Below are positions 9,771-36,581 of a stretch of 64,000 nucleotides of DNA, one piece after another. Location of the stretch: positions 160,001 to 224,000 of the forward strand of contig CAVYES010000007.1 in NCBI GenBank assembly GCA_963767735.1. Direction: 5' to 3'. Position 1 is the first letter of the stretch, and each line of letters begins with the position of its first letter. Both the position numbers and the translations under genes were made by a program. Source of the stretch: Candidatus Bathyarchaeota archaeon (lineage in GTDB: Archaea > Thermoproteota > Bathyarchaeia > Bathyarchaeales > Bathycorpusculaceae). The notes beneath the pieces were generated by a model that worked only from the letters and a program-made list of their open reading frames with translations, was not told the DNA's origin and ran no database searches.

Positions 9771-9844
9771 GGCCGGGGTGAGGTAGCTTGGTAGCCTAGA
9801 GGCCTGTGGAGCCTTTTGCCAGGGTTCAAATCCCTGCCCCGGCC
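9771..9844 (+). tRNA. tRNA-His(GTG) with genome-encoded G-1
   Basis: Acceptor GCCGGGG/CCCCGGC plus G-1:C73; anticodon arm GAGGC-CT-GTG-GA-GCCTT; T-loop GGTTCAAATCC. Confidence 0.95.
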
Positions 9845-9872
9845 CTCCTCAAACTTCCATGATCCGTTAAGT

Positions 9873-10161: not shown

Positions 10162-10683
10162 TTGGCGAAAATTAATCCAGGCTCAAATTTCAATGAAGAT
10201 AACGATATTCGAACCGCGCATCCAGGCGGTCTGCAAAATATTAACTTCATAGAACCTAAAATTGACGATAAGGGTAAACTTCACTGCCCAACTTGCGATA
10301 GAGTTTTTAGTTCAAGAGAAGATTACATCAGCCACGCTTTATCTAAACATCAGACCATAGAGCCAAATCGCGCGCGCAAGTTTTTAGCTACGGTTCCATA
10401 CAATATTGGTTTTCATTTTTTCATATCTGAAGGCAGATACACGGGGGAAACAGCTGTTAGTTTAGCAACATTTGCCAGAGAAGTTGAAGTGGCACCGATT
10501 GAATCGATCGATTTTCATTTCAAAAGATCTGACTTCCAAAAGTGGATAGCAGACACCATTAGAGACACTGAATTGTCAACGTCAATCGGAAACGTTGAAA
10601 AAGAACTTGCGGGTGAACCATTGAGAAAAAGACTTCTCTCGATCATAAATGCGCGGGTAAAGGAACTGGAAAATCAAATATAA
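10162..10683 (+). CDS. C2H2 zinc finger + DUF5752-like domain protein
   Basis: CPTC...H....H finger, then FHF...GETAVSL...IESIDFH...DFQKWI; SD GGAGGTGA upstream. Confidence 0.75.
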   Translation: MAKINPGSNFNEDNDIRTAHPGGLQNINFIEPKIDDKGKLHCPTCDRVFSSREDYISHALSKHQTIEPNRARKFLATVPYNIGFHFFISEGRYTGETAVSLATFAREVEVAPIESIDFHFKRSDFQKWIADTIRDTELSTSIGNVEKELAGEPLRKRLLSIINARVKELENQI

Positions 10684-10760: not shown

Positions 10761-10865
10761 AGTTTCTAGTGTTTTTGAGCCCTCCTGATCTAATTAACCT
10801 CTGGCTATACAGTTGTCATAAATCTAAGCAATCTTTTAAGCTAACTAAACTCTATAAATATAGGC

Positions 10866-11272
10866 ATGCCTCAAAAAAAAGCGAAGATAGTTGTCACAGA
10901 ACTAAATGAAAGAAGCGGAAAAGGTCTTGCTTTAGACAAACAGATTTTGCTGACCGAAAATATGCAGCAGCCCAAACTGCGAAGAGCATGTGAACATTAC
11001 GTTAAGAACTGGCATGATTTCTATCATGCAGGCCTGTTTTTTCAATGTCTTTCGAGGCTGTAGGCGGCAATCCTGATGAATTCCTACAAGCCCAAGCTGC
11101 CATAGCCATATTGGCTACCTCATTTGACTTGCATGATGATGTCTTGGACAAGTCTCACAAAACCTTTCGCCTTGCTGGAGCTTGGTGCCCTTCCACGCGG
11201 CTTTCTTCCCATGAGCTGCGCAATTTCTTCTCGATTTGCTTCATCAGTCTATGGAATCTGTTGAACTATTAG
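10866..11272 (+). pseudogene. Truncated, frameshifted polyprenyl-synthase-like paralog
   Basis: Two ORF pieces join (HAGLF/SFEAVGG...DLHDDVLDKS) and align with 11387-12376; similarity stops right after the first Asp-rich motif (~11160). Confidence 0.75.
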
Positions 11273-11386
11273 GCTTTGTTTCGCTTCCAGCAACGAACGC
11301 TAACTCAAAATATAAGGGGAGTTTAGAAAAAGATAGCATAGTTTTGGGAAAACAATATATCCGTTCGAAAGCAAATAAAGAACTTT

Positions 11387-12376
11387 ATGGCAAGTGAAAA
11401 TCGAACCGAAAAAGCGATGAAGATTCTGAACGAAAAAAGCGAAAAAGCACGTGCCATTGTAAAACATTCAATCCTTGAAAAACAAATTGGAATAGGGAAA
11501 GTAGACAAGGCTATTGGCCAATATCTTTCAAGATGGAATGATACCACTCGACCCGGCGTGCTTGCGCTCGCCTGCGAAGCAGTAGGCGGAAAAAGAGAAG
11601 TTGTGCCTTTGCAGGCTGCATTATTATTCATCGATGCCACAATGGATATTCATGACGACATCATTGACGAGTCAGTCACTAAGAAGAACAGGAAGACAGT
11701 TTATGGTAAGATAGGGAAGGAGGCGACCTTACTTATTGGTGATGCGTTCATGGTTGAGGGCTTCTACTATCTTCACAAAGCAATAGAAAACCTTCCGACA
11801 GCCCAGAAACTAATGATTATGGACGGAGTAAAAGATTTTCTTTCAGAAGTGGTGGAAGCGCACATATCCGAGGCTCCTTTAAAAACAAAAAAATCGAAAT
11901 TAAGACCCGAAACATACTTCCAGATTTTGACAAAAAAAGCCGCTGATATCGAGGGTCACATGAAAGTGGGCGCTATCTACGGCTGCGGCTCGGCAAAACA
12001 AATAGAGCTTATGAGTAATTATGGGAGAAATATAGGCATTCTTTTGGCGGTAAAATCGGAATTTGTTGACGTTTTTGAGCCTAAGGAGCTTACGCACAGG
12101 ATAAAATATGAAGTCTTACCGCTTCCAGTTCTTTACGCACTGAGAAGCCCTAAATATGGGAAGCAGATCCGAGAAATCTTGAAAAGAGATTGCCTCACCA
12201 ATGAGGATTGTAGAGAGCTTGTAGAAATTGTCTACGAGACAAAAGAGATTGCACTCTTAAAACTACGCATGAAAGATTTAGAAAAAGAGGCGATTATTAC
12301 AACAGATTTACTATCAAACAAAAAGGTTAAAGAAGAGCTTCAGCTATTGGCGGCTTCCATGATAGAAGACCTATAA
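11387..12376 (+). CDS. Divergent trans-prenyltransferase (polyprenyl synthetase fold), candidate ComQ-like peptide prenyltransferase
   Basis: First Asp-rich motif DIHDDIID and LLIGD intact; second motif replaced by AVKSEFVD. Confidence 0.85.
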   Translation: MASENRTEKAMKILNEKSEKARAIVKHSILEKQIGIGKVDKAIGQYLSRWNDTTRPGVLALACEAVGGKREVVPLQAALLFIDATMDIHDDIIDESVTKKNRKTVYGKIGKEATLLIGDAFMVEGFYYLHKAIENLPTAQKLMIMDGVKDFLSEVVEAHISEAPLKTKKSKLRPETYFQILTKKAADIEGHMKVGAIYGCGSAKQIELMSNYGRNIGILLAVKSEFVDVFEPKELTHRIKYEVLPLPVLYALRSPKYGKQIREILKRDCLTNEDCRELVEIVYETKEIALLKLRMKDLEKEAIITTDLLSNKKVKEELQLLAASMIEDL

Positions 12377-12380
12377 ATAC

Positions 12381-12431
12381 TTACCAAGCAAGTACCTTTG
12401 GTTTTTTCCTAATTGCTCGACGCTTCTCCAT
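12381..12431 (-). CDS. Unannotated 16-aa basic peptide ending in Trp (MEKRRAIRKKPKVLAW), candidate prenylated-peptide precursor
   Basis: ATG preceded by SD AGGTGAGGAG; TATA box CTTATAAG about 40 bp upstream; stop 4 bp from the prenyltransferase stop. Confidence 0.75.
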   Translation of the reverse strand: MEKRRAIRKKPKVLAW

Positions 12432-12482
12432 TTCTCCTCACCTGTATATCTGTTCAACACCTCTACGCTTATAAGCTTTGTC
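12432..12482 (-). promoter_or_regulatory. Archaeal promoter and SD for the 16-aa peptide
   Basis: Minus strand reads ACAAAG-CTTATAAG...ACAGGTGAGGAGAA-ATG (purine-rich BRE, TATA, SD). Confidence 0.6.
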
Positions 12483-12562
12483 ATTATACAAGACACGAAA
12501 AGCAACAAACATAGCTAAAATTAATATTAACAATCCGCAAAATTAGTATTCATAAACGCGCT

Positions 12563-13897
12563 GTGCTTAGTAGAGAGAAAATGCGCAAAATCCAAATCAG
12601 AGAGTCCTTTCCTTCACTATTTCTGCTGATCAATAGCATTGTCTGGTTCTCTCTCTCATGGCTACTTATTCAAAACTACATAGGCAACACTTCTTTCAGC
12701 AACATTTTGCTCGTATCATCCGCCTATTTTGGGGCACTTCTCTTATCAGCCATAGTTGGAGCTACATTGCTGCGTAAGAAATTAGCAGGAAAAATCGCGT
12801 TGTTATCATGGGTTTCGCTTGGAGCAGTCGCATGCCTGCTTTCGGCAGTTTTGGTTCATGGGGCAAGTTCGATCGGCCTGGTTTTTTTTTCAATTCTTCT
12901 CGGTGCATTGGCTGGATTAGGTATCCCAACTTGCCTCGCATTATTTTCAGAAGTTACAAAATCAACTAATCGCGGACGCAGCGGAGCAATAGTATTCTTT
13001 CTTATTCAAGCAGTGACGGTTCTAATCTATATTCCCGCTATCAATATAAATGTTGATAACGATTTCTTGGTTCTCGCTGCATGGAGAATCGTGGGCGTAC
13101 TAAGCATATTTTTCTGGGTGCCTCATGAGAAAATTTCTGAGCAGAGCAAAAGTAAGCTCTTAAGCATCATTCGTGAAAGAACTGTTTTTCTCTTATTCAT
13201 TCCATGGTTTCTACTCACCACCGTAAACTTCGTGGAACAGCCTCTAATCCAGCATTACTTTGGAACAGACCTGTACAACACCTACCAGATGGTCGAAATC
13301 GTAATTATTGGCGCTTCAGCTTTTATCGGAGGAGTAATTTGCGACTTCAGAGGACGAAAGGTTTCAGGTATTATAGGCTTTATCTTGTTAGGCGTAGGCT
13401 ACGCTTTTCTAAGCCTTTTATCTGGAACCCAGATTTCCCAAATTCTATGGGTCTTGTGTGATGGAGTTGCTTGGGGATTCTTATATGTTACATTCATCTT
13501 CGTTGTCTGGGGAGATATTTCCCAGGGAAGAGTCCCTGAAAAGTATTACCTTTTAGGCGGCATACCGTTTCTATTATCCAACTTGATCTCAGTTTTGGTC
13601 CAACCTTTTGTAGAGTATGTTCCAATAACCACTTCGTTCTCTTTTGCCAGCTTCTTCTTATTTGTAGCAATTTTGCCTCTACTGTACGCCCCTGAAACTC
13701 TGCCCGAGAAAGCCCTCAAAGACAGAGACCTAAAGGGATACGCAGAGAAAGCCCTTAAGCAGGCCAACAAGGAGGCAAGCAAAAACCAGAAAAAAGATTC
13801 AGCCAAGGCTGAAAAAGAAAACGCGAGCGGAAATGAAGAGTCTGAAGAGAACCCTGCATATGAGAAAGCTCGAAAGTTAGCGGAAAAATACTATTAA
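12563..13897 (+). CDS. MFS-fold membrane protein with charged C-terminal tail
   Basis: About 12 TM segments, GVICDFRGRK motif-A-like loop, PETLPEK after the last helix. Confidence 0.8.
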   Translation: MLSREKMRKIQIRESFPSLFLLINSIVWFSLSWLLIQNYIGNTSFSNILLVSSAYFGALLLSAIVGATLLRKKLAGKIALLSWVSLGAVACLLSAVLVHGASSIGLVFFSILLGALAGLGIPTCLALFSEVTKSTNRGRSGAIVFFLIQAVTVLIYIPAININVDNDFLVLAAWRIVGVLSIFFWVPHEKISEQSKSKLLSIIRERTVFLLFIPWFLLTTVNFVEQPLIQHYFGTDLYNTYQMVEIVIIGASAFIGGVICDFRGRKVSGIIGFILLGVGYAFLSLLSGTQISQILWVLCDGVAWGFLYVTFIFVVWGDISQGRVPEKYYLLGGIPFLLSNLISVLVQPFVEYVPITTSFSFASFFLFVAILPLLYAPETLPEKALKDRDLKGYAEKALKQANKEASKNQKKDSAKAEKENASGNEESEENPAYEKARKLAEKYY

Positions 13898-13898
13898 G

Positions 13899-15056
13899 TT
13901 GGAGTCGCATTCTCAACTCTGCATGTTCTTCCACGTAATAGTGACAACCAAGTGCAATTTGCAGTGCCGCTACTGTTTCGGTGAGTCACTGGATGACTTT
14001 GACGAAAGCTTTGGCGACGATATAGAGGTAGATTATGCTCTTCCCGGCAAAATAAACTATGATGTAGAGCTGCTGGAAAAGTTTTGCCGAAAGGACCCGG
14101 ATTGCGTCCTAACTTTTTACGGCGGCGAACCCTTGCTTGGTGCTAACAAAATCAAGCAGGTAATGGACAATGTTGAGGCCAAGCTTTTTATGATTCAGAC
14201 AAACGGGTTGCTGCTTGATAAGCTCGAGCCAAAATACGTTAACCGCTTTCACACTATTTTAGTATCTGTTGATGGCGAAGAAGCTTTAACTGATTATTAC
14301 AGGGGAAACGGAACTTTCCGCAAAGTCGTAAACAACCTCAAATTAATCAAGAAAAACGGCTTCAGAGGAGAATTAATTGCTAGAATGACAATAATGGAGC
14401 AAACAGACATCGACAAACAAGTCCGATGGCTCTTAGACAACGATGAATTTTCGTTTTCCTCAGTGCATTGGCAATTGAACGCTGGTTTTTGGGGAAACGA
14501 TTACCAAAGGCGCAACTTTGAACCATGGACAGAGACAAGCTACATTCCTGGCGTAAAAAAGCTTGCAAGATTCTGGGTGGACCAAATGGAGGAGGAGAAG
14601 GGCGTTGTTTTGAAGCTTTACCCTTTGCTGGGAATTGCCAATTCGCTTTTGCGTGGAGAGAAAAATTGTTTTATGCGTTGTGGAGGAGGCTGGATAAACT
14701 ATGCCATTCAAACTGACGGTTACATAATTCCTTGCCCAACCATGTGGGGGATGAAAAAGTACTATTTAGGCAACATTAGCAATACTGATCCATGTAAAAT
14801 AAAGAAAATTTTTGTTGACCAGCCGCCATGTACAAAATGCTCGATTCTGAACGTTTGTGGCGGAAGATGCCTGTATGCAAATATAACTAAACGATGGAAT
14901 GATGAAGATTACAGTAAAGTTTGCCGCACAGTTGCAAAACTCGCTGACGCTGTTAAGGCTGAGGTTCCACGGATTCAGCATTTGCTCAAGAAAGGAAAAG
15001 TCAACATAAAAGATTTCGATTTCATCAAGTATAATGGGTGCGAAATTATACCATAG
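13899..15056 (+). CDS. Radical SAM/SPASM protein resembling the archaeal AF0577 (TIGR04084) family; likely start ATG 13923
   Basis: CNLQCRYC, FYGGEP and QTNG; SPASM cysteines CGGG...PCP...CTKC..LNVCGGRC. Confidence 0.85.
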   Translation: MESHSQLCMFFHVIVTTKCNLQCRYCFGESLDDFDESFGDDIEVDYALPGKINYDVELLEKFCRKDPDCVLTFYGGEPLLGANKIKQVMDNVEAKLFMIQTNGLLLDKLEPKYVNRFHTILVSVDGEEALTDYYRGNGTFRKVVNNLKLIKKNGFRGELIARMTIMEQTDIDKQVRWLLDNDEFSFSSVHWQLNAGFWGNDYQRRNFEPWTETSYIPGVKKLARFWVDQMEEEKGVVLKLYPLLGIANSLLRGEKNCFMRCGGGWINYAIQTDGYIIPCPTMWGMKKYYLGNISNTDPCKIKKIFVDQPPCTKCSILNVCGGRCLYANITKRWNDEDYSKVCRTVAKLADAVKAEVPRIQHLLKKGKVNIKDFDFIKYNGCEIIP

Positions 15057-15079: not shown

Positions 15080-16390
15080 TCATTTCCTTTTTCTGAATAG
15101 TTTGTGTCCTTCTATTTCAGCGTGAAACTCGAATCCGACTTCTATTAGTTTGATTGCGTCTTCCATTGTATCTGCCACTTTGACAGTGAATTGGTCGTTT
15201 GCGTCGCCGTTATAGAGCATTTCTTCGAGGTGAATGTAGTTTTCTGTTGAGGTGATGCTTTTGTGTCCTAGAATCATTTTAACGTGCCATGGGTCTTTAG
15301 TTTTATGTTGTTCTGTGGTTGCTTTCCAATGTCTGAAAGTGTGGAAGTGAATTAGTATCAGTTTTGGGTTAGCTTGGCGTTCTATTATTCTTCTTTTCTG
15401 TAGGAAGAAGCTAGTTCGCATGTCGTCTGCACTGGCAAATATTTTGTTTTTCCTTGCGGGGTTTCTGTTGATTCTAGGAAGCCTTGAAACCATTTCAATA
15501 GCTTTAGCGGATAGCGGCAATATTCTGCTGTTGGATCCTTTTTCTGCTTTTATCCTTACTTTTCGTTGTTCCCAATCTATCGAGAGCCAATCAAGTTCCG
15601 CTATTTCGCCACATCTTGCGCCCGTTTCTTTTAGTAATTGGCAAAAACACGCTTGTTTCTTTCCTAGAGCTGCGATTAATAGGTCTATTTCGTTTTCTGT
15701 GGGTATGTATGGAATTTCGTGTTCGTCGGAGTATTTTGGGACTCGCCATCTTATTTGATTGTAATCAAACCAGCTTCCCAATATTCCTGTAACAGTTTTC
15801 TTTGTGCTTTCTTTAATCGTTGATTTAGCCAACGCTGCCTTAGTGCTTTCGGGATCAAATAGATCTGCTCCGTCCTGCAATAACCGCTTGAAGGATTTTC
15901 GATAGTTTAAGATTGTGCCGTCTTTTCTTCCATCATTCTTTAGCTGTATAAGGAATTTCTCGATTTGCAGCCATGCTTTAACTTCGTTTTCTGTTGGTGA
16001 CTGTTTCCCTTTCTCCGCGCAAGTCTTGATTTCTTGCGTGGAAGCCAAATTTTTCGCATCCTGCGGGATTACGCTTATTTGACTATTTACTTTGTAGGCT
16101 AATTCCTTTTTAAATGATTGTTCAGAAAGATGCTTACTAAATCTGTGCCCATAATCCGCACACCTGTACCGTTGGATGGGCTCGATTGATTGTGCATTTA
16201 ACGGTGCATCTCTGAAACCATCTTTGAATATTCGGTCACTCCCACATTCGGGGCATTCCATAGGCTGAGGCTCTGTAGGTGGGCATTGCGTCTGGCATGT
16301 TTGCCACTCCCCAGAAAACGCATTATCTAATCCCGCAGATGCAATACTTGAGGAGCTGCCCTTTTCCTGAACCTCAACCATAACTTTCAA
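15080..16390 (-). CDS. Tyrosine recombinase/integrase with N-terminal Zn ribbon
   Basis: TGARCGE, HTFRH and LGHKSITSTENY catalytic motifs; CPECGS...YRC N-terminal ribbon. Confidence 0.92.
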   Translation of the reverse strand: MKVMVEVQEKGSSSSIASAGLDNAFSGEWQTCQTQCPPTEPQPMECPECGSDRIFKDGFRDAPLNAQSIEPIQRYRCADYGHRFSKHLSEQSFKKELAYKVNSQISVIPQDAKNLASTQEIKTCAEKGKQSPTENEVKAWLQIEKFLIQLKNDGRKDGTILNYRKSFKRLLQDGADLFDPESTKAALAKSTIKESTKKTVTGILGSWFDYNQIRWRVPKYSDEHEIPYIPTENEIDLLIAALGKKQACFCQLLKETGARCGEIAELDWLSIDWEQRKVRIKAEKGSNSRILPLSAKAIEMVSRLPRINRNPARKNKIFASADDMRTSFFLQKRRIIERQANPKLILIHFHTFRHWKATTEQHKTKDPWHVKMILGHKSITSTENYIHLEEMLYNGDANDQFTVKVADTMEDAIKLIEVGFEFHAEIEGHKLFRKRK

Positions 16391-18981
16391 GGCTCCTCCT
16401 TATCATCAAAACTTGGTATATCAGGAAAAGCTGTCGCAAAGTTGGCGTTAGTGAAGGTTTGCTTTAACTGTTGATAACAGTTCTCGCAGCGTCTAAGTAT
16501 GTCTTTTTGAGGCGTAATGATTTGCTTTGTGACTGCTAAAGCTGTGCAAGCTTCGCATTTTTCACCGGTTGGAATATCTTTGACATAAAAAATGGGCTGA
16601 TGCTGGCCGAGTTTGCCTTCAATCGGTTTCTCCTCTTTCCTCTTTGTCCTTTCAGGAAACACAAGCAAATTGCAACTTTTTTCGCTATCGAGCCTTGATT
16701 CTTGCTCTATTGGCTTCCTATCACTTATTACCTCCGAGGCCCAATATTTTTTCCTCAACACCTCAGGAACGTCAACCAAGGTCTCCTTGCTGTCCTGATG
16801 ATTCTCCGAAAAACTTTTTGCCACCTCTGAGCAGATAAGATGAGAAGATAGAGATAAGAATGATTTAAGCTCGTTTGGGTAATTGGCTTTGTATTCGCTT
16901 ATCTTTTCTGAAAAGACAAACGAATTAACGCTATTTTGCCCATTCACAATTTCATATTGAAAAGGCTTACTACTTTCAACCTCTTTGAGATAGCCATTCT
17001 TAGCGAGTGTTTTCAAAATTCTGGCAGCTGTCACTGACGAGCAGCGCAGTTTTTCGGCTAATTGATTCTTGTTTAATTTATCGCTTTTTTCAATGATTTC
17101 TAAGGCTTCTTTCTGGCGTTTTTCTATCCTGGTGACTGTTTCAATTATAGCGGTTTCAAGGATAGTTAGGGCTAATTCTACATCTTCGCAATCAGCTATA
17201 ACATACGTGTTTTCCTCAAATGTCAGCTTTATCCGTTGCCTTTGGTGAATAAGCGCCAAGATTTTAATGACATTAAGTATCCTCTCGATTTGTGTTCTTA
17301 GAGCGACTTCTTGTTCTTTCTTGTTAGCTAAATCTATCAAGCCAAGAAGGGCAGTTGGTGGAAAAATTACGACTTCTAAGCTAAAATCTAACAAAGCAAG
17401 AGCATTTTTAAAGTCTTTTTCTGAATATACGCTCTTGTTTTGTTCTGGAAACAGTCTGGCTCTCAGGCTTTCCGGTATGCTGGCATCTCTCATTTTCTTA
17501 GCGCATACACGCTTTGTAAGCGTTAAGCTATCATTCATGCTATTTTTGAAAACGCGACGATATAGGTCAGCAGCAACATCTAACCCGCTGTCTGTTGAAA
17601 TAAAGTTTTTGGCGTTTGTTTGAGTTTCTCCTAAAGTCATCTTTCCGGTGATTTCATCGCGCATTGGATAGATTGTTTTAATTCCCTTTCCTTCGCCAAT
17701 AGATCTTAAGCCTAAGGTTCCAGTTTCGCTTCGTATTCCCGCTAACTCGTAAATTATCATTGTGCCTTTGAAGTCTTCAGGAAGGTACTTTATTGCCTCT
17801 GGCGTGCTGGTGGTGAATTCGAACAGCCAGTCTTCGGGAATTAAAGGACTTATTGCTCTTATGCTTTCGTTCTTTCCGCTGCCGCTGTGTCCTGTAATGA
17901 TTTCGCTTATTGGATAATGAGTTTGACCACTAATTGTGAAAATGAAGTTTTGTTTGATTAGATTGTCTTCACCAATTAGATGTTTACGGCCTAAAGATAA
18001 CGCGTGATCAAGCAGTTTTGGGTCCGCTAACAATTTTTCCGCCTTGGCTTTCTCTTCTTTTGTTGCTTCTTCGATGCTTTTTTGGGCTAATGGGCAGCCT
18101 TCGGGTTCGCAAACAGATTTTAAAATCGGATCATTGCAACCGTAAACATAGTTGCCCTGAAGGGCTGACTTGAGTAATGCTTCTATTTCTTTACTGTCCA
18201 GCTGCGGTTCATTAAATTTGTTCCAAGTTCTCAGAAGTTTTAAGCTGGCCTCTGCTTGGTATTGCTTGCAGTTCCCATAGTAGCTTGCTAATCTTATTCC
18301 ATGTTCATTTCTTAGGCCTTCTTCGGTTCCCTTTGTAAGTTCTCTGATACAGTTGGGGTTTTTTCCTCTGTATGATTGATCTGGAGCTTCTTTGCGGTCA
18401 AACCAGGTTTCGCTTTTCCCCTCAGATTTTTCTCCTCTAACGCCTGCGGCATAAAAAGCGTCCAAAAGCAAGCCTTCTAAGTCATTAAGGACAGCAGGTG
18501 AATTGTCATTTATTTTTTTGTAGTTTCGGCTGGGCGCCATAGCGCAATAAGTGTGCTCGCCGAGAAGTTCTATTGCACATTCATTATGGTATGTCTTTAG
18601 AGTCTTGGGCTTAGAATGTACGTAGTATGTCCAGTGTTGGCCTCCGCTTGGTGTTTCCTCGATCATTGTGGCAGGTAGCTCTTTTAAGACACGTTGACCT
18701 TTCTCAATAGCCTTTGGCGAAACATTTTTGACATCAAAATCAATTACTGCTAAGTATAGGCTGTCTTTGTTTTTTGTTCCACAAACAATGCCTATACCGT
18801 CAGCGTCAGAAAAGTTCAAGCTGTCAAATTCTTCTTGTGTTTGTCTCTGTGTTTGCCACTTTTCCCACTTTGTTAAGGGTTGTTTTACTTTTATTGTGAA
18901 TACGTTAAGCCCTATTTCATAGTAAGCTTGGGCCGCACCTAAAAGCTCTGATTTTGACCCGTTTTGCGTCATCATTGTCAC
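16387..18981 (-). CDS. Bifunctional primase/polymerase + PriCT-like + P-loop helicase-like + wHTH replication protein
   Basis: GIGIVCG, IDFDVK and TPSGGQH (Prim-Pol); EGLRN...WN..N (PriCT); GHSGSGKN Walker A; C-terminal wHTH and CxxC..CxxC. Confidence 0.85.
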   Translation of the reverse strand: MTMMTQNGSKSELLGAAQAYYEIGLNVFTIKVKQPLTKWEKWQTQRQTQEEFDSLNFSDADGIGIVCGTKNKDSLYLAVIDFDVKNVSPKAIEKGQRVLKELPATMIEETPSGGQHWTYYVHSKPKTLKTYHNECAIELLGEHTYCAMAPSRNYKKINDNSPAVLNDLEGLLLDAFYAAGVRGEKSEGKSETWFDRKEAPDQSYRGKNPNCIRELTKGTEEGLRNEHGIRLASYYGNCKQYQAEASLKLLRTWNKFNEPQLDSKEIEALLKSALQGNYVYGCNDPILKSVCEPEGCPLAQKSIEEATKEEKAKAEKLLADPKLLDHALSLGRKHLIGEDNLIKQNFIFTISGQTHYPISEIITGHSGSGKNESIRAISPLIPEDWLFEFTTSTPEAIKYLPEDFKGTMIIYELAGIRSETGTLGLRSIGEGKGIKTIYPMRDEITGKMTLGETQTNAKNFISTDSGLDVAADLYRRVFKNSMNDSLTLTKRVCAKKMRDASIPESLRARLFPEQNKSVYSEKDFKNALALLDFSLEVVIFPPTALLGLIDLANKKEQEVALRTQIERILNVIKILALIHQRQRIKLTFEENTYVIADCEDVELALTILETAIIETVTRIEKRQKEALEIIEKSDKLNKNQLAEKLRCSSVTAARILKTLAKNGYLKEVESSKPFQYEIVNGQNSVNSFVFSEKISEYKANYPNELKSFLSLSSHLICSEVAKSFSENHQDSKETLVDVPEVLRKKYWASEVISDRKPIEQESRLDSEKSCNLLVFPERTKRKEEKPIEGKLGQHQPIFYVKDIPTGEKCEACTALAVTKQIITPQKDILRRCENCYQQLKQTFTNANFATAFPDIPSFDDKEEP

Positions 18982-24527: not shown

Positions 24528-24761
24528 CTAAAAGCATCTATGTTTGGAGCCGCTACTCCAGTTCCAAGTTACATGCCAATAGAGGCGCAAACAAATTTTC
24601 TCATATTCCGTAGCTTGAGCCTGCAGAACCATATGCACTTTATCATAAATAGTCTTCATCTGCAGAAGCGCCTTATAGAAAACTTTGCTTTCAGGATCTT
24701 CCCGCGCTTTAGCGATGTTAATTTGAAAAAGCGCCTCACCTGATTCTTGAGTGCACGTCAT
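24528..24761 (-). CDS. Hypothetical protein (probably a frameshifted fragment)
   Basis: Co-oriented 77-aa ORF; coding-like sequence continues toward 24850. Confidence 0.35.
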   Translation of the reverse strand: MTCTQESGEALFQINIAKAREDPESKVFYKALLQMKTIYDKVHMVLQAQATEYEKICLRLYWHVTWNWSSGSKHRCF

Positions 24762-24928
24762 GCCCTAACATCAATGTATCTTGCTGTGCCAGCGGATATT
24801 TTTCTAGCAGATACTTGCGAGTGGTCAAATAAGTTAGCAGGATTTCCCATTCTCTACCAGACATCAACGATAAATCATTACCTAGCTGGATCTAAAGCTT
24901 CGGGGAATAACTGCTTAAGCGTACAGTT

Positions 24929-27544
<2,616 letters not shown>

Positions 27545-32209: not shown

Positions 32210-32470
32210 TTACAGTTTCTTGTAAACGACGTCCTTTTCTTTCGCGGGCTGAACCAATTTTAATCCTATGCTTTGTCCGCCTTCAGCTCGTTGAAGAGAT
32301 TTGCCCTCTGTTTGAATAGATTCTGCAATTTGCTCAAAATCAGTCGAAGGACCTTTTACTAGAATGTGATCTCCAACAGATAGGGGTAACATTAATTCAA
32401 CAATTGCCACGCTAATTTTAGAAAAGAAATGTATAACATGCCCAACCTCGATTATGGCGTCTTCCACCAA
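32210..32470 (-). CDS. Small translation-factor-like beta-barrel protein
   Basis: VGHVIHFFSKISVA...LSVGD.I...G..TDFEQ...SIQ...GQSIGLK. Confidence 0.8.
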   Translation of the reverse strand: MVEDAIIEVGHVIHFFSKISVAIVELMLPLSVGDHILVKGPSTDFEQIAESIQTEGKSLQRAEGGQSIGLKLVQPAKEKDVVYKKL

Positions 32471-32668
32471 AGTTTTTATCCTCTCTTTTAAATATAGCTG
32501 GATGCCAATAAAAATCTTATGTATTATAAAATAAATAGAACTAAATAGCTAAAATTTTGGTCTTTGATACGTTTTCATGTGGGTTTATGTTAAAAATGGA
32601 GTTAGTTTTTTTTAAGGGTAGAAAGGTGTTTTTTTGCTGAACGAGATAAAAAAAATCTGAGAATTATT

Positions 32669-32833
32669 TTACCATCCTGAGGTGGCGTCTTCACCAGTTT
32701 GCTCCAACGCCTTCTTTTCTTCGTCGCTGACATCTGGAGGTAAATTAACTTGATGATGACTTTCTTCTATTATTTCTCTTTTCTTCTTTCGCTCCCGAAT
32801 AGTAAATTGACCCCTTTTTTGTTTTTCAGCCAA
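32669..32833 (-). CDS. Unannotated 54-aa hydrophilic peptide (MAEKQKRGQF...GEDATSGW)
   Basis: TTG start with SD GGAGGTGA; 55 open codons; below the ORF-track cutoff. Confidence 0.7.
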   Translation of the reverse strand: MAEKQKRGQFTIRERKKKREIIEESHHQVNLPPDVSDEEKKALEQTGEDATSGW

Positions 32834-32984
32834 AACTTTCACCTCCAAAAATCAGAAAATATTATCCTTTAAAGAATAACGGAAATTTAATGTATTAACA
32901 TGCGTGGTTGTGTAATAACAGCAACAATTAAAATTATAGAATAAAGGTTTAGGGAGATTAAAAAAATTGGAGTTTTTCGATTGC

Positions 32985-33437
32985 TTATGGTTGGTCAATG
33001 GACAATTCTTTTACTCTTGTTTCAATGAATTCGGCAACCTTTTGTTCGCTAAACTCTTTTTCGTTTTTTTGTAGCTGCAACTGCTCTTTTACAATGTTTA
33101 GGAGGTTTTCGATATCTATGGGTTTGATCAGGTATGCGTCTGCATTCTTGTTTAAGGCTGATATAGCATTTTGCATCGAAGGGTAACCTGTCACCATTAT
33201 TTTGCGTGTCCTTGGAACCGTATCCTTAATGAGTTTTAGCAGTTCAACTCCTTCCATGTCAGGCAATCGAATATCTAACAGCGCAATGTTATAAGCTGAT
33301 TTCTGAGTTTTTTGAACAGCTTCTCTTCCGGTGGCTGCTGAATCGACAATGTATCCTTCGTCCTCAAGTATGGTCTTCATGGTGTTCCTTATGTTTTCGT
33401 CGTCATCGACAACGAGGATTTTGGCATGTTTATCCAA
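32985..33437 (-). CDS. Response regulator (receiver domain + short tail)
   Basis: LVVDDD, LLDIRLPDMEG, MVTG and YLIKP motifs. Confidence 0.95.
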   Translation of the reverse strand: MDKHAKILVVDDDENIRNTMKTILEDEGYIVDSAATGREAVQKTQKSAYNIALLDIRLPDMEGVELLKLIKDTVPRTRKIMVTGYPSMQNAISALNKNADAYLIKPIDIENLLNIVKEQLQLQKNEKEFSEQKVAEFIETRVKELSIDQP

Positions 33438-36142
33438 ATTTTTTCACCTCCAATTTCAGGTTTTGGTTCAATTGGCAAAGTAACTATGAAAGTTGTTCCT
33501 TTGCCCTTAGCTGTTTTAACCGTTATTTTCCCCCCATGAGCCTCGACTATGCGTTTGCATATCGCTAAGCCGAAGCCCATACCTTGCGCTTTCGTAGTGG
33601 ACAGAGGGGAGAAAAGTTTGGGCATAATTTCATCACTAATGCCTGTGCCAGTGTCTGTGAAAGAGATTTCCAAGCCATCATTAACTTGTATACTGTCGAT
33701 AGTTAATTTGCCTCCGTTCGGCATTGCATCAAGGGCGTTCTTGATAAGATTTATGAAAACACGTTTTATTTTATCAAAATCTAGCATAAGATTTCGCGTA
33801 TCTTTAAGGCAATTTACAATTTTCACTTTTTCGGGAATCTGAGACATAGATAAAGAGTCATTGAGCAACACGCTTGGGGAACACTCCTTCAACTCTAAAT
33901 GGATTTCTCTTGAGTAATCCAAAAGGTCACTGACAATTTTGTTTGAATAATCCACGCATCTATCGATTGTATCAAGCATTTCTTTAGCCTGGACCTCTGA
34001 GATTTCTGCGCCTTTCTTTTTCAAATAATAAGCTGAGTTTTTGATTCCCGTTAATGGATTGCGTAGATCATGCCCAACCATGCCTGCCAATTCGCCTATA
34101 GCGGCCAGACGCTCGGTCTTAACGAGCTTTGCTTGCGCCTGTTTCAGCAGTTCAGTCCTTTTTTCAATGAGGTCTTCGAGTTTTTCGGAGTACTTAGAGA
34201 GTTCGCTTTGCATACATTTAATTTTTGTAATATCAACTGCAAGTTCCAAGACGGCAACTACATTGCCTTCCTGGTTTTTCATTGGGGTAGAGGTGATCTC
34301 AAGGTTCAGCGTTTCTCCATGACTTTCAACTGTGGTTTCACGTTTGTCAATGCTGGCGCCATCAAAAATTTTCTTGACTCCGCAGGCTGGGCAAATTGAG
34401 TGATTGCCATGAATTGTTTCGTAACAAGTTTTTCTTTCTATATCGCCAAACATTTGTTTCGAGTGTGGGTTAATCCAAGTTATCTTGTAGTCTTTGTCAA
34501 CTATCATAAGCCCTGCACTAATGTTTTGTGTCACTGCTTCAAACTTGTTTTTTTCCTCTTCGAGTTTTTCCTGCAACTGCTTCTTTTCCGTTATGTCAAC
34601 AGTGAGCTCTAAAGCGGCTGTGACCTTTCCCTCTGCGTCCTTAATCGGCGTAGCAATAAGCTCATACCAGCAAGGCAGACCCTTTTCATGCAGGGTTTTA
34701 TTGAAATATTCTCGGGAATCAAAAGATGCCCCAGCAAAAACCTTTTCAGGCCCACAACCGGGGCATATGGTCTCAAGCGTATTAAATGTTGAATAACATA
34801 TTTTGTTTGTAAGGTCGCCCCCGTTGTTTTTCAAAAAGCTGTTTGTCCAAAGTATGCGGTAATCCTTATCAAGTATTACCAGCCCAGCTCCGATGCTTTT
34901 GGTGATGTCTTCAAGCATGTCACGTTCCTGTTTGATGGAGGCTTCCATCTTCTTTTGTTCTGAAATATCCTTAACTATGGCTGCTATGCAATTTTTATCT
35001 TTCAATTTTACTGATGCTACTGAGAGGTCAATCGGAAACACTGTTCCATCCTTCCTCAGCGATGTTAAATCAAAGTGTCTCTTTGAAAATGCATTGTGCT
35101 TTAAGTCGTTCAGCAACGCTTCATAATTCTCACGTCCCCATGACGGAATGATTAGTTCAGACATTTTTCCGCCTACTGCCTCAGCTTCTGCGAAGCCGAA
35201 GATTTTCTCTGCAGCAGGATTCCAATATATGACTTTGTCGTCTTCATCAACTAAAATGATGGCATCCATGGCAGAGGAGCTGATGGCGCGGAATTTTTCT
35301 TCGCTTGCTCGTAGCCCATCTTCGAGTTGTTTGCGTTCGGTAATGTCTTTTACTACTCCGACCGCATTCCATTTACCGCGTAACTTTATCGGCGAAATCG
35401 ATAATTCGGCAGGGAATTCTGTGGCGTCCTTGCGTCGCCCCATTAATTCAACGTTTCCAAATGTGAAATAGCCTGATCCTGTTTCAGTAAACAACTTTAC
35501 GCTTGAGCTGATTCGTTCTCTTCCCTCTTTGCACAGCGTATTTGGAACAACTAGTTTGTGTATATCTTTGCCAATTGCCTCTTTACTTTTGTAGCCGAAT
35601 GTTTTTTCAGCAGCCGGATTCCAACATGTAACCCTGGCTTTTTCATTCACCAAGATCATTGCATCCTTTGATTGTTGGAAAAGCTTCTTGTATTTCATCT
35701 CAGATTCCTGACATTGTTCATCCATTTTTGCAATTTTTACCAGTAGTTGTCCCTGAATCTGCCTTTTTTCCGTTACATCTCGTAGAGTGATTAGGTCAGC
35801 TGGTTCCCCAAAGTAATCAATCGTATTACCTTTTGGCTCAAAAAATCGAGTTTCTCCGTTTACAAGAAATGGGATTTCGTAATTCTCGATTGTTTCGCCT
35901 TTAATTCTTTTCTGGAGTTGATTTATAACAAATATCTTCGTTTTTTCATCAATAATTTTCAGGTCTTCAATATGATTACCTATTAATTCCTCACTTTTTA
36001 TTCCAAGATGAATACATGCGGTTTCGTTGGCAGCCAGCACAATACCTTCTCGATTAAATACCAAAATTGAGTCTGAAACGAAGTTTAGAAGCTCTTGAAA
36101 GTTATCTTTATACGCGTTGCTTTTGCTTTTCTTCTGCATCAA
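33389..36142 (-). CDS. Cytoplasmic multi-PAS sensor histidine kinase
   Basis: About five PAS/PAC repeats (two with C..CG), HDLRNPL H-box, NALDA, DTGTG and GMGFGL. Confidence 0.93.
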   Translation of the reverse strand: MMQKKSKSNAYKDNFQELLNFVSDSILVFNREGIVLAANETACIHLGIKSEELIGNHIEDLKIIDEKTKIFVINQLQKRIKGETIENYEIPFLVNGETRFFEPKGNTIDYFGEPADLITLRDVTEKRQIQGQLLVKIAKMDEQCQESEMKYKKLFQQSKDAMILVNEKARVTCWNPAAEKTFGYKSKEAIGKDIHKLVVPNTLCKEGRERISSSVKLFTETGSGYFTFGNVELMGRRKDATEFPAELSISPIKLRGKWNAVGVVKDITERKQLEDGLRASEEKFRAISSSAMDAIILVDEDDKVIYWNPAAEKIFGFAEAEAVGGKMSELIIPSWGRENYEALLNDLKHNAFSKRHFDLTSLRKDGTVFPIDLSVASVKLKDKNCIAAIVKDISEQKKMEASIKQERDMLEDITKSIGAGLVILDKDYRILWTNSFLKNNGGDLTNKICYSTFNTLETICPGCGPEKVFAGASFDSREYFNKTLHEKGLPCWYELIATPIKDAEGKVTAALELTVDITEKKQLQEKLEEEKNKFEAVTQNISAGLMIVDKDYKITWINPHSKQMFGDIERKTCYETIHGNHSICPACGVKKIFDGASIDKRETTVESHGETLNLEITSTPMKNQEGNVVAVLELAVDITKIKCMQSELSKYSEKLEDLIEKRTELLKQAQAKLVKTERLAAIGELAGMVGHDLRNPLTGIKNSAYYLKKKGAEISEVQAKEMLDTIDRCVDYSNKIVSDLLDYSREIHLELKECSPSVLLNDSLSMSQIPEKVKIVNCLKDTRNLMLDFDKIKRVFINLIKNALDAMPNGGKLTIDSIQVNDGLEISFTDTGTGISDEIMPKLFSPLSTTKAQGMGFGLAICKRIVEAHGGKITVKTAKGKGTTFIVTLPIEPKPEIGGEKIWINMPKSSLSMTTKT

Positions 36143-36581
36143 CCCAAACCTCTAATTTTACCATTTTCCCATCATCTTCATAATGTAGTCTCATGAGCTC
36201 GACATATTGATTAAACGTTAAATCGGGAACAAGCCAGCTTGGACCGCGCCACTCGTAAAAGCAATCGATTTTTTCGTGAAGCTTCTTCATCATAAGTATC
36301 TCCAAATGTTTTGCGGCTACGCCGAAAATGCGTTCAAGTGCACCCGAAAAATCATCGATCCTGTAAGGAATATCTTGCTTTGGAATGATGAATTCTTGTT
36401 CCAAATGAAAGTAAATTAACGTTTTTACGTTTTCTCCTAAAGTCGAAAACGCGCCATCTATAGCCTCCAGTAGAACAGCTTCAAATTTTTTATGCCCAGG
36501 AGCTTTATTACTCAATTGTTTATCCCAACGGTGCCCTTTTTCATTACAGACAGTTATGAACCTATTTTTTTCTCGGTTCAC
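36108..36581 (-). CDS. NitrOD5/DUF3227-like signalling-associated domain protein
   Basis: LLEAID.AFS.LGE.VK.LIYFHLE...IP..I..F..ALE.IFG..A..LE; overlaps the kinase start. Confidence 0.6.
   Translation of the reverse strand: MNREKNRFITVCNEKGHRWDKQLSNKAPGHKKFEAVLLEAIDGAFSTLGENVKTLIYFHLEQEFIIPKQDIPYRIDDFSGALERIFGVAAKHLEILMMKKLHEKIDCFYEWRGPSWLVPDLTFNQYVELMRLHYEDDGKMVKLEVWVDAEEKQKQRV

Follow-up and report, generated by a model that had tools for sequence, protein, structure and literature searches.

The window analysed here is a 64,000-nucleotide stretch from the genome of a Candidatus Bathyarchaeota archaeon (GenBank assembly GCA_963767735.1, contig CAVYES010000007.1, positions 160,001 to 224,000). 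Between its positions 10,866 and 15,056 lie a gene for a protein with a trans-isoprenyl-diphosphate-synthase fold, a 16-codon open reading frame (ORF) on the opposite strand, a gene for a transporter of the major facilitator superfamily (MFS) and a radical S-adenosylmethionine (SAM)/SPASM gene, preceded by the pieces of a second, broken synthase-like gene (Table 1). The original prediction had read this locus as a system resembling ComQ/ComX of Bacillus, in which the synthase-like enzyme prenylates a Trp of the hidden small peptide. The layout on which it drew was recovered: two synthase-fold genes, one of them broken, a Trp-ending ORF of 16 codons with a Shine-Dalgarno-like word ahead of it, and a SPASM gene starting 1 bp past the MFS stop codon. 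The MFS gene, described there as divergent, is so relative to the small ORF, though it shares the strand of the synthase gene. The micro-ORF is the sole Trp-ending ORF of 8–40 codons that the ORF scan found in the intergenic space; its start is 131 nt away from that of the MFS gene and its end 4 nt away from the stop of the synthase gene, so that it is convergent (tail-to-tail) with the enzyme gene and divergent from the MFS gene. The match of the transporter to the MFS_1 profile (cut-off 33 bits) spans its residues 20–325 and covers the transmembrane core. The two frames of the broken synthase-like gene overlap at 11045–11063, which points to a frameshift plus a truncation.

Table 1. Genes and other features of the locus, in coordinates of the window
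Feature	Position	Strand	Basis or remark
Broken synthase-like gene, frame A (N-terminal piece)	10866–11063	+	Putative relic of an older allele; ORF map, homologue comparison
Broken synthase-like gene, second piece in another frame, carrying the first Asp-rich motif	11045–11272	+	ORF map, homologue comparison
Intact gene for a trans-isoprenyl-diphosphate-synthase-fold protein, 329 aa	11387–12376	+	PF00348, 75 bits
Micro-gene of 16 codons and a stop codon; Trp-terminated tail after a basic head and a P-K-V hinge	12381–12431	−	ORF scan
Divergent control region between micro-gene and MFS gene	12432–12562		Sequence inspection
MFS transporter gene, 444 aa	12563–13897	+	PF07690, 53 bits
Radical SAM/SPASM gene, family TIGR04084	13899–15056	+	303 bits, cut-off 225

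Homologous loci were drawn from genomes belonging to the window's genus, order and class and from named Bathyarchaeia assemblies; these sets overlap in genomes and the loci are mutually related, so that the counts given below are not independent. In almost all of them, the gap between the enzyme and MFS genes, typically 165–270 nt, holds an opposite-strand ORF of 12–23 codons, whose stop is placed at −11 to about +50 nt relative to the stop of the synthase gene. A scan with a loose motif detected this micro-ORF in 44 of 52 loci, and inspection by eye of the eight misses added four (L028, L030, L031 and L058) and one frameshifted copy (L027), while no micro-ORF was seen in L063, L065 and L070. 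In a second set, of named Bathyarchaeia, it was detected in 69 of 80 loci. Seven of the ten misses of this set were inspected: four (L088, L135, L151 and L152) have family-like ORFs with non-ATG starts, two (L126 and L143) have enzyme and MFS genes but no micro-ORF that could be seen, and in L093 the relevant stretch lies beyond the inspected range. A strict detector, which combined an ATG, a Shine-Dalgarno-like word, 12–23 codons and the motif, returned hits on the minus strand of 30 of the 52 gaps, on the plus strand of none, and in 4 of 2600 Markov-shuffled gaps. Because it recurs at the same place and on the same strand in most loci, and is far rarer on the other strand or in shuffled gaps, the ORF at 12381–12431 is, judged by these comparisons, beyond chance and a member of a conserved micro-gene family.

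The composition of the peptides was assessed on 96 distinct sequences, from which L030, L058 and L134 were excluded as wrongly picked; L024, truncated behind the enzyme gene, fell outside the scan. Within 12–23 residues, the peptides begin with a head rich in Lys and Arg, pass through a P-[V/I/M]-R hinge and close with a short tail of hydrophobic and aromatic character. Lys makes up 24% of the residues, Arg 12%, Pro 9% and Trp 4.7%, and Asp, Gln, His and Cys are nearly absent. The P-x-R element is present in 82 of the 96, and the post-hinge tail, of 2–7 residues, is hydrophobic and aromatic, with Trp accounting for 35 of the tail residues across 42 distinct peptides. Trp occurs among the last seven residues of 55 peptides and an aromatic residue of any kind in 81, while 19 end in Trp. 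All seven loci in which the enzyme is at least 61% identical to that of the window encode a 16-residue peptide that starts with M-E-K and ends in W. The sister clade of this group has F-T-I-like tails and other clades have x-L/F/Y-P-x tails that lack Trp, so that tail type tracks enzyme clade. A small ORF with a Trp-rich tail is thus conserved among homologous loci as had been proposed, but a terminal Trp is held only in the subclade of the window.

At the level of codons, 37 of 42 distinct micro-ORFs start with ATG. The hinge Arg is encoded 23 times by CGN and 14 times by AGR, and all four Pro codons occur; that Arg is kept through switches between CGN and AGR argues that selection acts on the residues and not on the bases. 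In one close group of micro-ORFs, 6, 3 and 12 variable sites fall on the first, second and third codon positions, respectively. The corresponding numbers in the window's own group are 8, 9 and 10, with 99 synonymous and 150 non-synonymous pairwise codon differences, which gives no clear signal. As a separate observation, the end of the enzyme gene and the micro-ORF region are duplicated in tandem in L035 (9298–9793), as well as in L006 and L078; L035, the closest relative, carries two identical micro-ORF copies about 309 nt apart.

The control region shared by the micro-gene and the MFS gene contains, on the minus strand at 12434–12442, the Shine-Dalgarno-like word GGTGAGGAG, 3–11 nt before the ATG of the micro-ORF. 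It is followed upstream by a conserved ATATACAG box, 13–22 nt before the ATG, and by the TATA-like A/T palindrome GCTTATAAGC (12467–12476), approximately 40 nt upstream of the micro-ORF. A profile of the region upstream of 98 distinct copies shows G in 73% at −10, a purine-rich box from −11 to −7 and an A/T-rich, C-poor block from −42 to −38. This pattern fits an archaeal TATA box with a short leader and would be consistent with a promoter of the micro-gene. A search for sequencing runs found none of RNA, and four DNA runs yielded only short contigs of low depth that said nothing about expression or population variation. Near-palindromes (TGTTCAACA / TGTACAACA-like) flank the TATA-like element at 12444–12500 and are conserved at the same place in relatives; together with the ATATACAG box they may form the operator of some regulator.

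The AlphaFold2 model of the enzyme, with a predicted local distance difference test (pLDDT) score of 95, has the trans-isoprenyl-diphosphate-synthase fold. Its nearest solved structure, both by profile (E 1.7e-36) and by fold (Foldseek TM 0.80), is the archaeal type I geranylgeranyl diphosphate (GGPP) synthase of Pyrococcus horikoshii (1wy0), and chains of the indole prenyltransferase Ord1 were among the weaker fold and profile matches. Homologues, which were found in 60 of 301 genomes of the class, are publicly annotated as geranylgeranyl pyrophosphate synthase. The best NCBIfam match of the enzyme, to IdsA, reached 89 bits compared to a cut-off of 468 and so falls below the equivalog cut-off, and the same genome encodes three canonical paralogues scoring 158–217 bits, against 75 bits for the gene at 11387–12376. 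The first Asp-rich motif (D90, D91 and D94) is invariant in 66 sequences. By comparison with 1wy0 and the three paralogues, which carry GGKR..RP, RRGKPT and FQ-x-x-DD, the 52 family members have W-x-D..(R/H)-P in place of GGKR..RP and K-x-x-x-x-T in place of RRG, and have lost the FQ ahead of the second Asp-rich motif in favour of non-Q residues. The basic motifs GKR..RP and RRG of canonical synthases bind isopentenyl diphosphate (IPP). With these motifs lost, transfer of a prenyl group rather than chain elongation would be expected, and the enzyme is best described as a putative non-elongating prenyl donor enzyme. A degenerate second Asp-rich motif, named in the original prediction as a feature of Bacillus ComQ, is present in the window's subclade (S/A-E/D-x-x-D), but not in most relatives, which keep D/E-D/E-x-x-D.

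An in silico co-fold of enzyme and peptide had been suggested together with the original prediction. When the enzyme (66-row alignment) was modelled with the 16-mer, the complex reached an ipSAE of 0.54, compared to 0.07 for the best control, with at least 95% contact agreement between runs and a partner pLDDT of at least 63, giving a verdict of weak support. Of 80 solved complexes, 58 attained the mark, as did 2 of 110 mismatched pairs; just 7 of those 80, and both mismatches, did so at 0.60 or under, and the calibration contained no chain shorter than 30 residues. In certain genomes from another family, two intact synthase-like genes stand in tandem, followed by a single micro-ORF and the MFS gene (L042 7582–9634 and L043 7697–9749). 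No second micro-ORF was seen between the tandem enzyme genes of these two loci, which may represent a heterodimer or a recent duplication.

The MFS gene is the next gene after the enzyme gene in 20 of 20, 50 of 53 and 78 of 80 loci of three locus sets. Divergence was compared over 14 loci that carry all three genes, giving 91 pairs that are not independent of one another. Median pairwise identity was 36% for the enzyme, 40% for the MFS protein and 75% for the radical SAM protein, which remained 66–90% identical where the enzymes were 30–70% identical. The identities of enzyme and MFS protein were correlated (Spearman 0.74), in contrast to those of enzyme and radical SAM protein (−0.10) or of MFS and radical SAM protein (0.02). 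The TIGR04084 gene follows the MFS gene in 16 of 20 loci. It is, however, single-copy in 72 of 101 relatives, in at least 13 of which a search with the enzyme matched no cassette; a TIGR04084 search gave no match in G066, which is 99% complete and carries the cassette (0 of 2 in genus g7); in G098 a distance of 18 kb separates gene and cassette; and a match occurs in Sulfolobus acidocaldarius. Since each occurs without the other and their divergence is uncorrelated, the radical SAM gene was judged a conserved neighbour and probably not part of the module, which would comprise enzyme, micro-gene and MFS transporter as a cassette specific to Bathyarchaeia. A role of the radical SAM gene as a lipid enzyme was considered and rejected, as the available part of the relevant report (10.1101/2025.10.20.683597) concerns B12-binding radical SAM enzymes of another architecture. 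The literature search returned no paper on TIGR04084, the matches being unrelated accession-like strings. As a variation on the usual arrangement, two tandem MFS genes follow the enzyme gene in L051 (10270–13274), and the ORF map shows two MFS-family ORFs also in L041 and L046; in L041 the pieces cover adjoining parts of one protein and may belong to one gene that a frameshift has interrupted.

The original prediction had listed the broken synthase-like gene and the radical SAM gene along with the other parts of the locus. A role as partners is not supported for either by the comparison with homologues: the distribution and divergence of the radical SAM gene are independent of the cassette, and the broken gene is better explained as a recombination relic left by cassette replacement. 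Homology at the DNA level to the flank-type loci L049 and L053 covers about 10803–11155 and resumes from 13554–13644 through the radical SAM gene, while homology to L035 and L036 runs from 11340/11506 onward. Aligned with the N-termini of intact homologues, the relic protein pieces show 48–73% identity (48–67% for frame A against L044, L046, L049 and L053; 67–73% for the pieces against L049), and the homology of the second piece stops near 11155. The right junction falls within the conserved 3'-terminal part of the MFS gene, the last 250–340 nt of which belong to the conserved flank. Because the left flank matches L049/L053 and the cassette matches L035/L036, the stretch 10866–11272 is, on these alignments, the stump of a resident allele that was displaced by a cassette of a different type.

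Beyond the radical SAM gene, loci of the genus carry a small gene of no assigned family, a receiver gene, a PAS histidine kinase gene and another gene of no assigned family, with the kinase present in 8 of 21 loci and the receiver in 7 of 21. In the window, these downstream neighbours lie at 32213–36491, behind an inserted element, and in other families PadR-type regulators are found as neighbours. The window's kinase is 81% identical to that of the flank-type L049 but only 58% identical to that of the cassette-type L035, and hence does not travel with the cassette. The two-component genes were considered as an analogue of ComP/ComA, a role which was rejected since their phylogeny is that of the flank and other families lack them. 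Both they and the radical SAM gene are probably no more than syntenic neighbours of the module.

The ComQ/ComX system of Bacillus subtilis, which works with ComP/ComA, shares several features with the cassette. In both, the first Asp-rich motif is kept, and a gene for a synthase-fold enzyme stands beside one for a short peptide with a Trp near its C-terminus, a Trp that in the cassette is seen in the window and its closest relatives but not family-wide. ComQ/ComX shows pherotype polymorphism, with enzyme, peptide and membrane protein varying together between strains, and the same three components co-vary in the cassette. The precursors differ in length, ComX being synthesized as roughly 55 residues compared to 12–23 here. 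Unlike ComQ, the cassette enzyme is archaeal, apparently derived from an archaeal GGPP synthase (1wy0 being the best solved relative), and lacks the Gln/N-D-x-x-D pseudo-motif. The peptide gene of the cassette is convergent, the membrane partner that varies is an MFS protein instead of a histidine kinase, and there is no cognate sensor kinase, the nearby kinase following the flank.

According to the accessible portions of the reports, the synthase-fold enzymes that prenylate Trp in a peptide include ComQ, PalQ (which modifies a C-terminal Trp), StheQ and ChrPC (PMC10853753; 10.64898/2026.08.29.745113; PMC13290415). All those characterised act on Trp and come from a few bacteria only, as far as the available text of PMC13290415 extends, and in the known enzymes a Gln stands one turn ahead of the pseudo second motif (PMC13290415; 10.64898/2026.08.29.745113, in part). 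PalQ of Paenibacillus alvei is described in the accessible sections as prenylating a strictly C-terminal Trp (PMC10853753; PMC13290415), and the peptides of the window's subclade likewise all end in Trp. The PalX core also has basic residues ahead of its aromatic end; it is, however, cleaved from a large NHLP leader, whereas the cassette precursor has 16 residues in all, and PalQ clusters with a histidine kinase. StheQ/StheX of Sphaerobacter thermophilus and Ord1 have in common a synthase fold that forms homodimers, one donor site, located at the first Asp-rich motif, and an indole as acceptor, as set out in the accessible part of 10.64898/2026.08.29.745113. The fold and the donor motif are shared by the cassette enzyme, among whose matches Ord1 appears, but in place of the Gln that StheQ and Ord1 have one helical turn before the pseudo second motif the cassette enzyme has Ala, Thr or Leu. 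Because this conserved Gln is absent, the family would at best work like the known synthase-fold peptide prenyltransferases, and its motifs do not support membership of the ComQ family. The ComQ/ComX comparison in the original prediction is supported by the kept donor motif, the loss of the IPP motifs, the co-divergence of enzyme and MFS protein, the conservation of the micro-ORF and, weakly, the predicted complex; the Gln of the Trp prenyltransferases is what is missing. The literature search returned bacterial peptide-prenylation systems only, with no archaeal case and nothing on the Bathyarchaeia enzyme family.

Taken together, the sequence comparisons are best accommodated by a system akin to ComQ and PalQ, in which a prenylated micro-peptide is exported and enzyme, peptide and transporter form type-specific sets, a reading to which we assign a probability of about 0.4. 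The enzyme, descended from an archaeal GGPP synthase, would use its first Asp-rich motif to bind an allylic prenyl diphosphate, bind the micro-peptide and prenylate its tail, at the C-terminal Trp in the type found in the window. The MFS protein would then export the resulting cationic lipopeptide, which would act outside the cell either as a signal or as a membrane-active agent. Enzyme, peptide and transporter would diversify and be swapped as one block, giving rise to specificity types. Several observations weigh against this proposal. Most family members have an acidic second motif, and at the position of the upstream Gln they have Ala, Thr, Leu or Ile. There is no Trp among the last seven residues of 41 of the 96 peptides and no aromatic residue in 15 (e.g. 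those with T-L-P-P tails), and Trp prenylation therefore cannot be universal. The micro-gene is convergent with the enzyme gene and not co-transcribed with it, and its Lys-rich head reads as a T-run on the strand of the enzyme gene, where it could be a terminator of that gene. One clade (L063, L065, L070, L126 and L143) has enzyme and MFS genes without a recognisable micro-ORF, the complex score is a weak pass only, and the motif detector was devised after the peptides had been seen, on loci that are related to one another.

Some of these points would also fit a non-peptide substrate, an alternative that is rather unlikely, though it deserves to be taken seriously. The enzyme would then be a synthase-derived terpene synthase or small-molecule prenyltransferase, the MFS protein would export its product, and the micro-peptide would play an accessory part, for instance in regulation or by binding the enzyme or the transporter. 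Synthase-like terpene synthases have lost the IPP motifs while keeping both acidic motifs, which is the pattern of most relatives; the clade without a recognisable micro-ORF and the existence of peptides without aromatic tails also agree with this explanation. It does not account, however, for a peptide of 12–23 residues with a hypervariable tail accompanying the enzyme in about 85–90% of loci, it leaves the fast divergence of enzyme and transporter unexplained, and the predicted enzyme–peptide complex, weak pass as it is, speaks against it. Improbable, in our view, is a purely cis-regulatory micro-ORF, acting as a leader or arrest peptide or as an antisense unit controlling either the enzyme gene's 3' end or the divergent promoter of the MFS gene, with no function of its product. 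Its place within the shared control region, overlapping or abutting the enzyme stop, the T-run opposite its Lys codons, and the Pro or R-A-G-P-like ends of several peptides, which resemble arrest motifs, would suit such a role. Yet the micro-ORF has no downstream gene on its own strand, its hinge is most conserved and its C-terminal end most variable, the opposite of what is found in arrest peptides, and the retention of Arg through codon switches points to selection on the residue.

Still less probable is that the micro-peptide is the precursor of a ribosomally made peptide that is modified after translation (a RiPP) and is produced by the TIGR04084 enzyme, the synthase-like protein playing a minor part. 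The radical SAM gene does adjoin the MFS gene, here and in most of the 20 loci examined, and its next-best score is to PapB-type peptide maturases; the genomes in which gene and cassette occur apart, the 18 kb between them in G098, the uncorrelated divergence and the match in Sulfolobus argue against such a partnership. That the enzyme is an ordinary GGPP synthase of membrane-lipid synthesis, and the small ORF noise, is barely credible: the public annotation of homologues, the fold and the first Asp-rich motif agree with it, but the genome already holds three canonical paralogues with far higher scores, the IPP motifs are lost, the family was found in only a fifth of the genomes of the class (60 of 301), and the strict-detector counts speak against noise.

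Upstream of the locus, a tRNA-His gene lies at 9772–9845, and the 86–120 nt around it are 90–98% identical in L046, L049 and L053; in the window, a C2H2 zinc-finger/DUF5752 gene (10162–10683) stands between this tRNA gene and the relic synthase gene. Downstream, approximately 17 kb (15080 to about 32200) separate the radical SAM gene from its usual neighbours. This insert begins with genes for an integrase (15080–16390) and a PrimPol/PriCT/wHTH protein (16387–18981), both on the minus strand. In L051, an integrase fragment of 80% identity borders the radical SAM gene, and L046 has an integrase homologue of 35% identity upstream of the cassette. No duplicate of the 3' end of the radical SAM gene, as an attachment site of the neighbouring element, was found within the window. 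Homopolymer runs at 24931–26669 (148 T, 180 A and 1411 T) account for bins of 20–24% GC and for long "ORFs" at 24747–26777, and appear to be an artefact of the assembly or the reads and not a biological feature.

Even without the chemistry, the analysis points to a conserved micro-gene that has gone unnoticed next to a gene publicly annotated as a GGPP synthase. Were the proposed mechanism to hold, peptide prenylation would have an independent archaeal origin, its precursors, at 12–23 residues, would be the shortest known, and the cassettes would offer natural enzyme–peptide pairs with varied tails for peptide lipidation. It would also open a concrete, testable way into the social or antagonistic behaviour of an uncultured archaeal group that ranks among the most abundant. 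A more far-reaching possibility, which we regard as distinctly unlikely, is that the cassettes represent the first peptide-based cell–cell recognition in archaea, each type with its own prenylated micro-peptide and with the MFS-fold protein as a type-specific exporter or receptor. Populations of Bathyarchaeia would then fall into pherotype- or kin-like groups, and a swap of cassettes would change the group.

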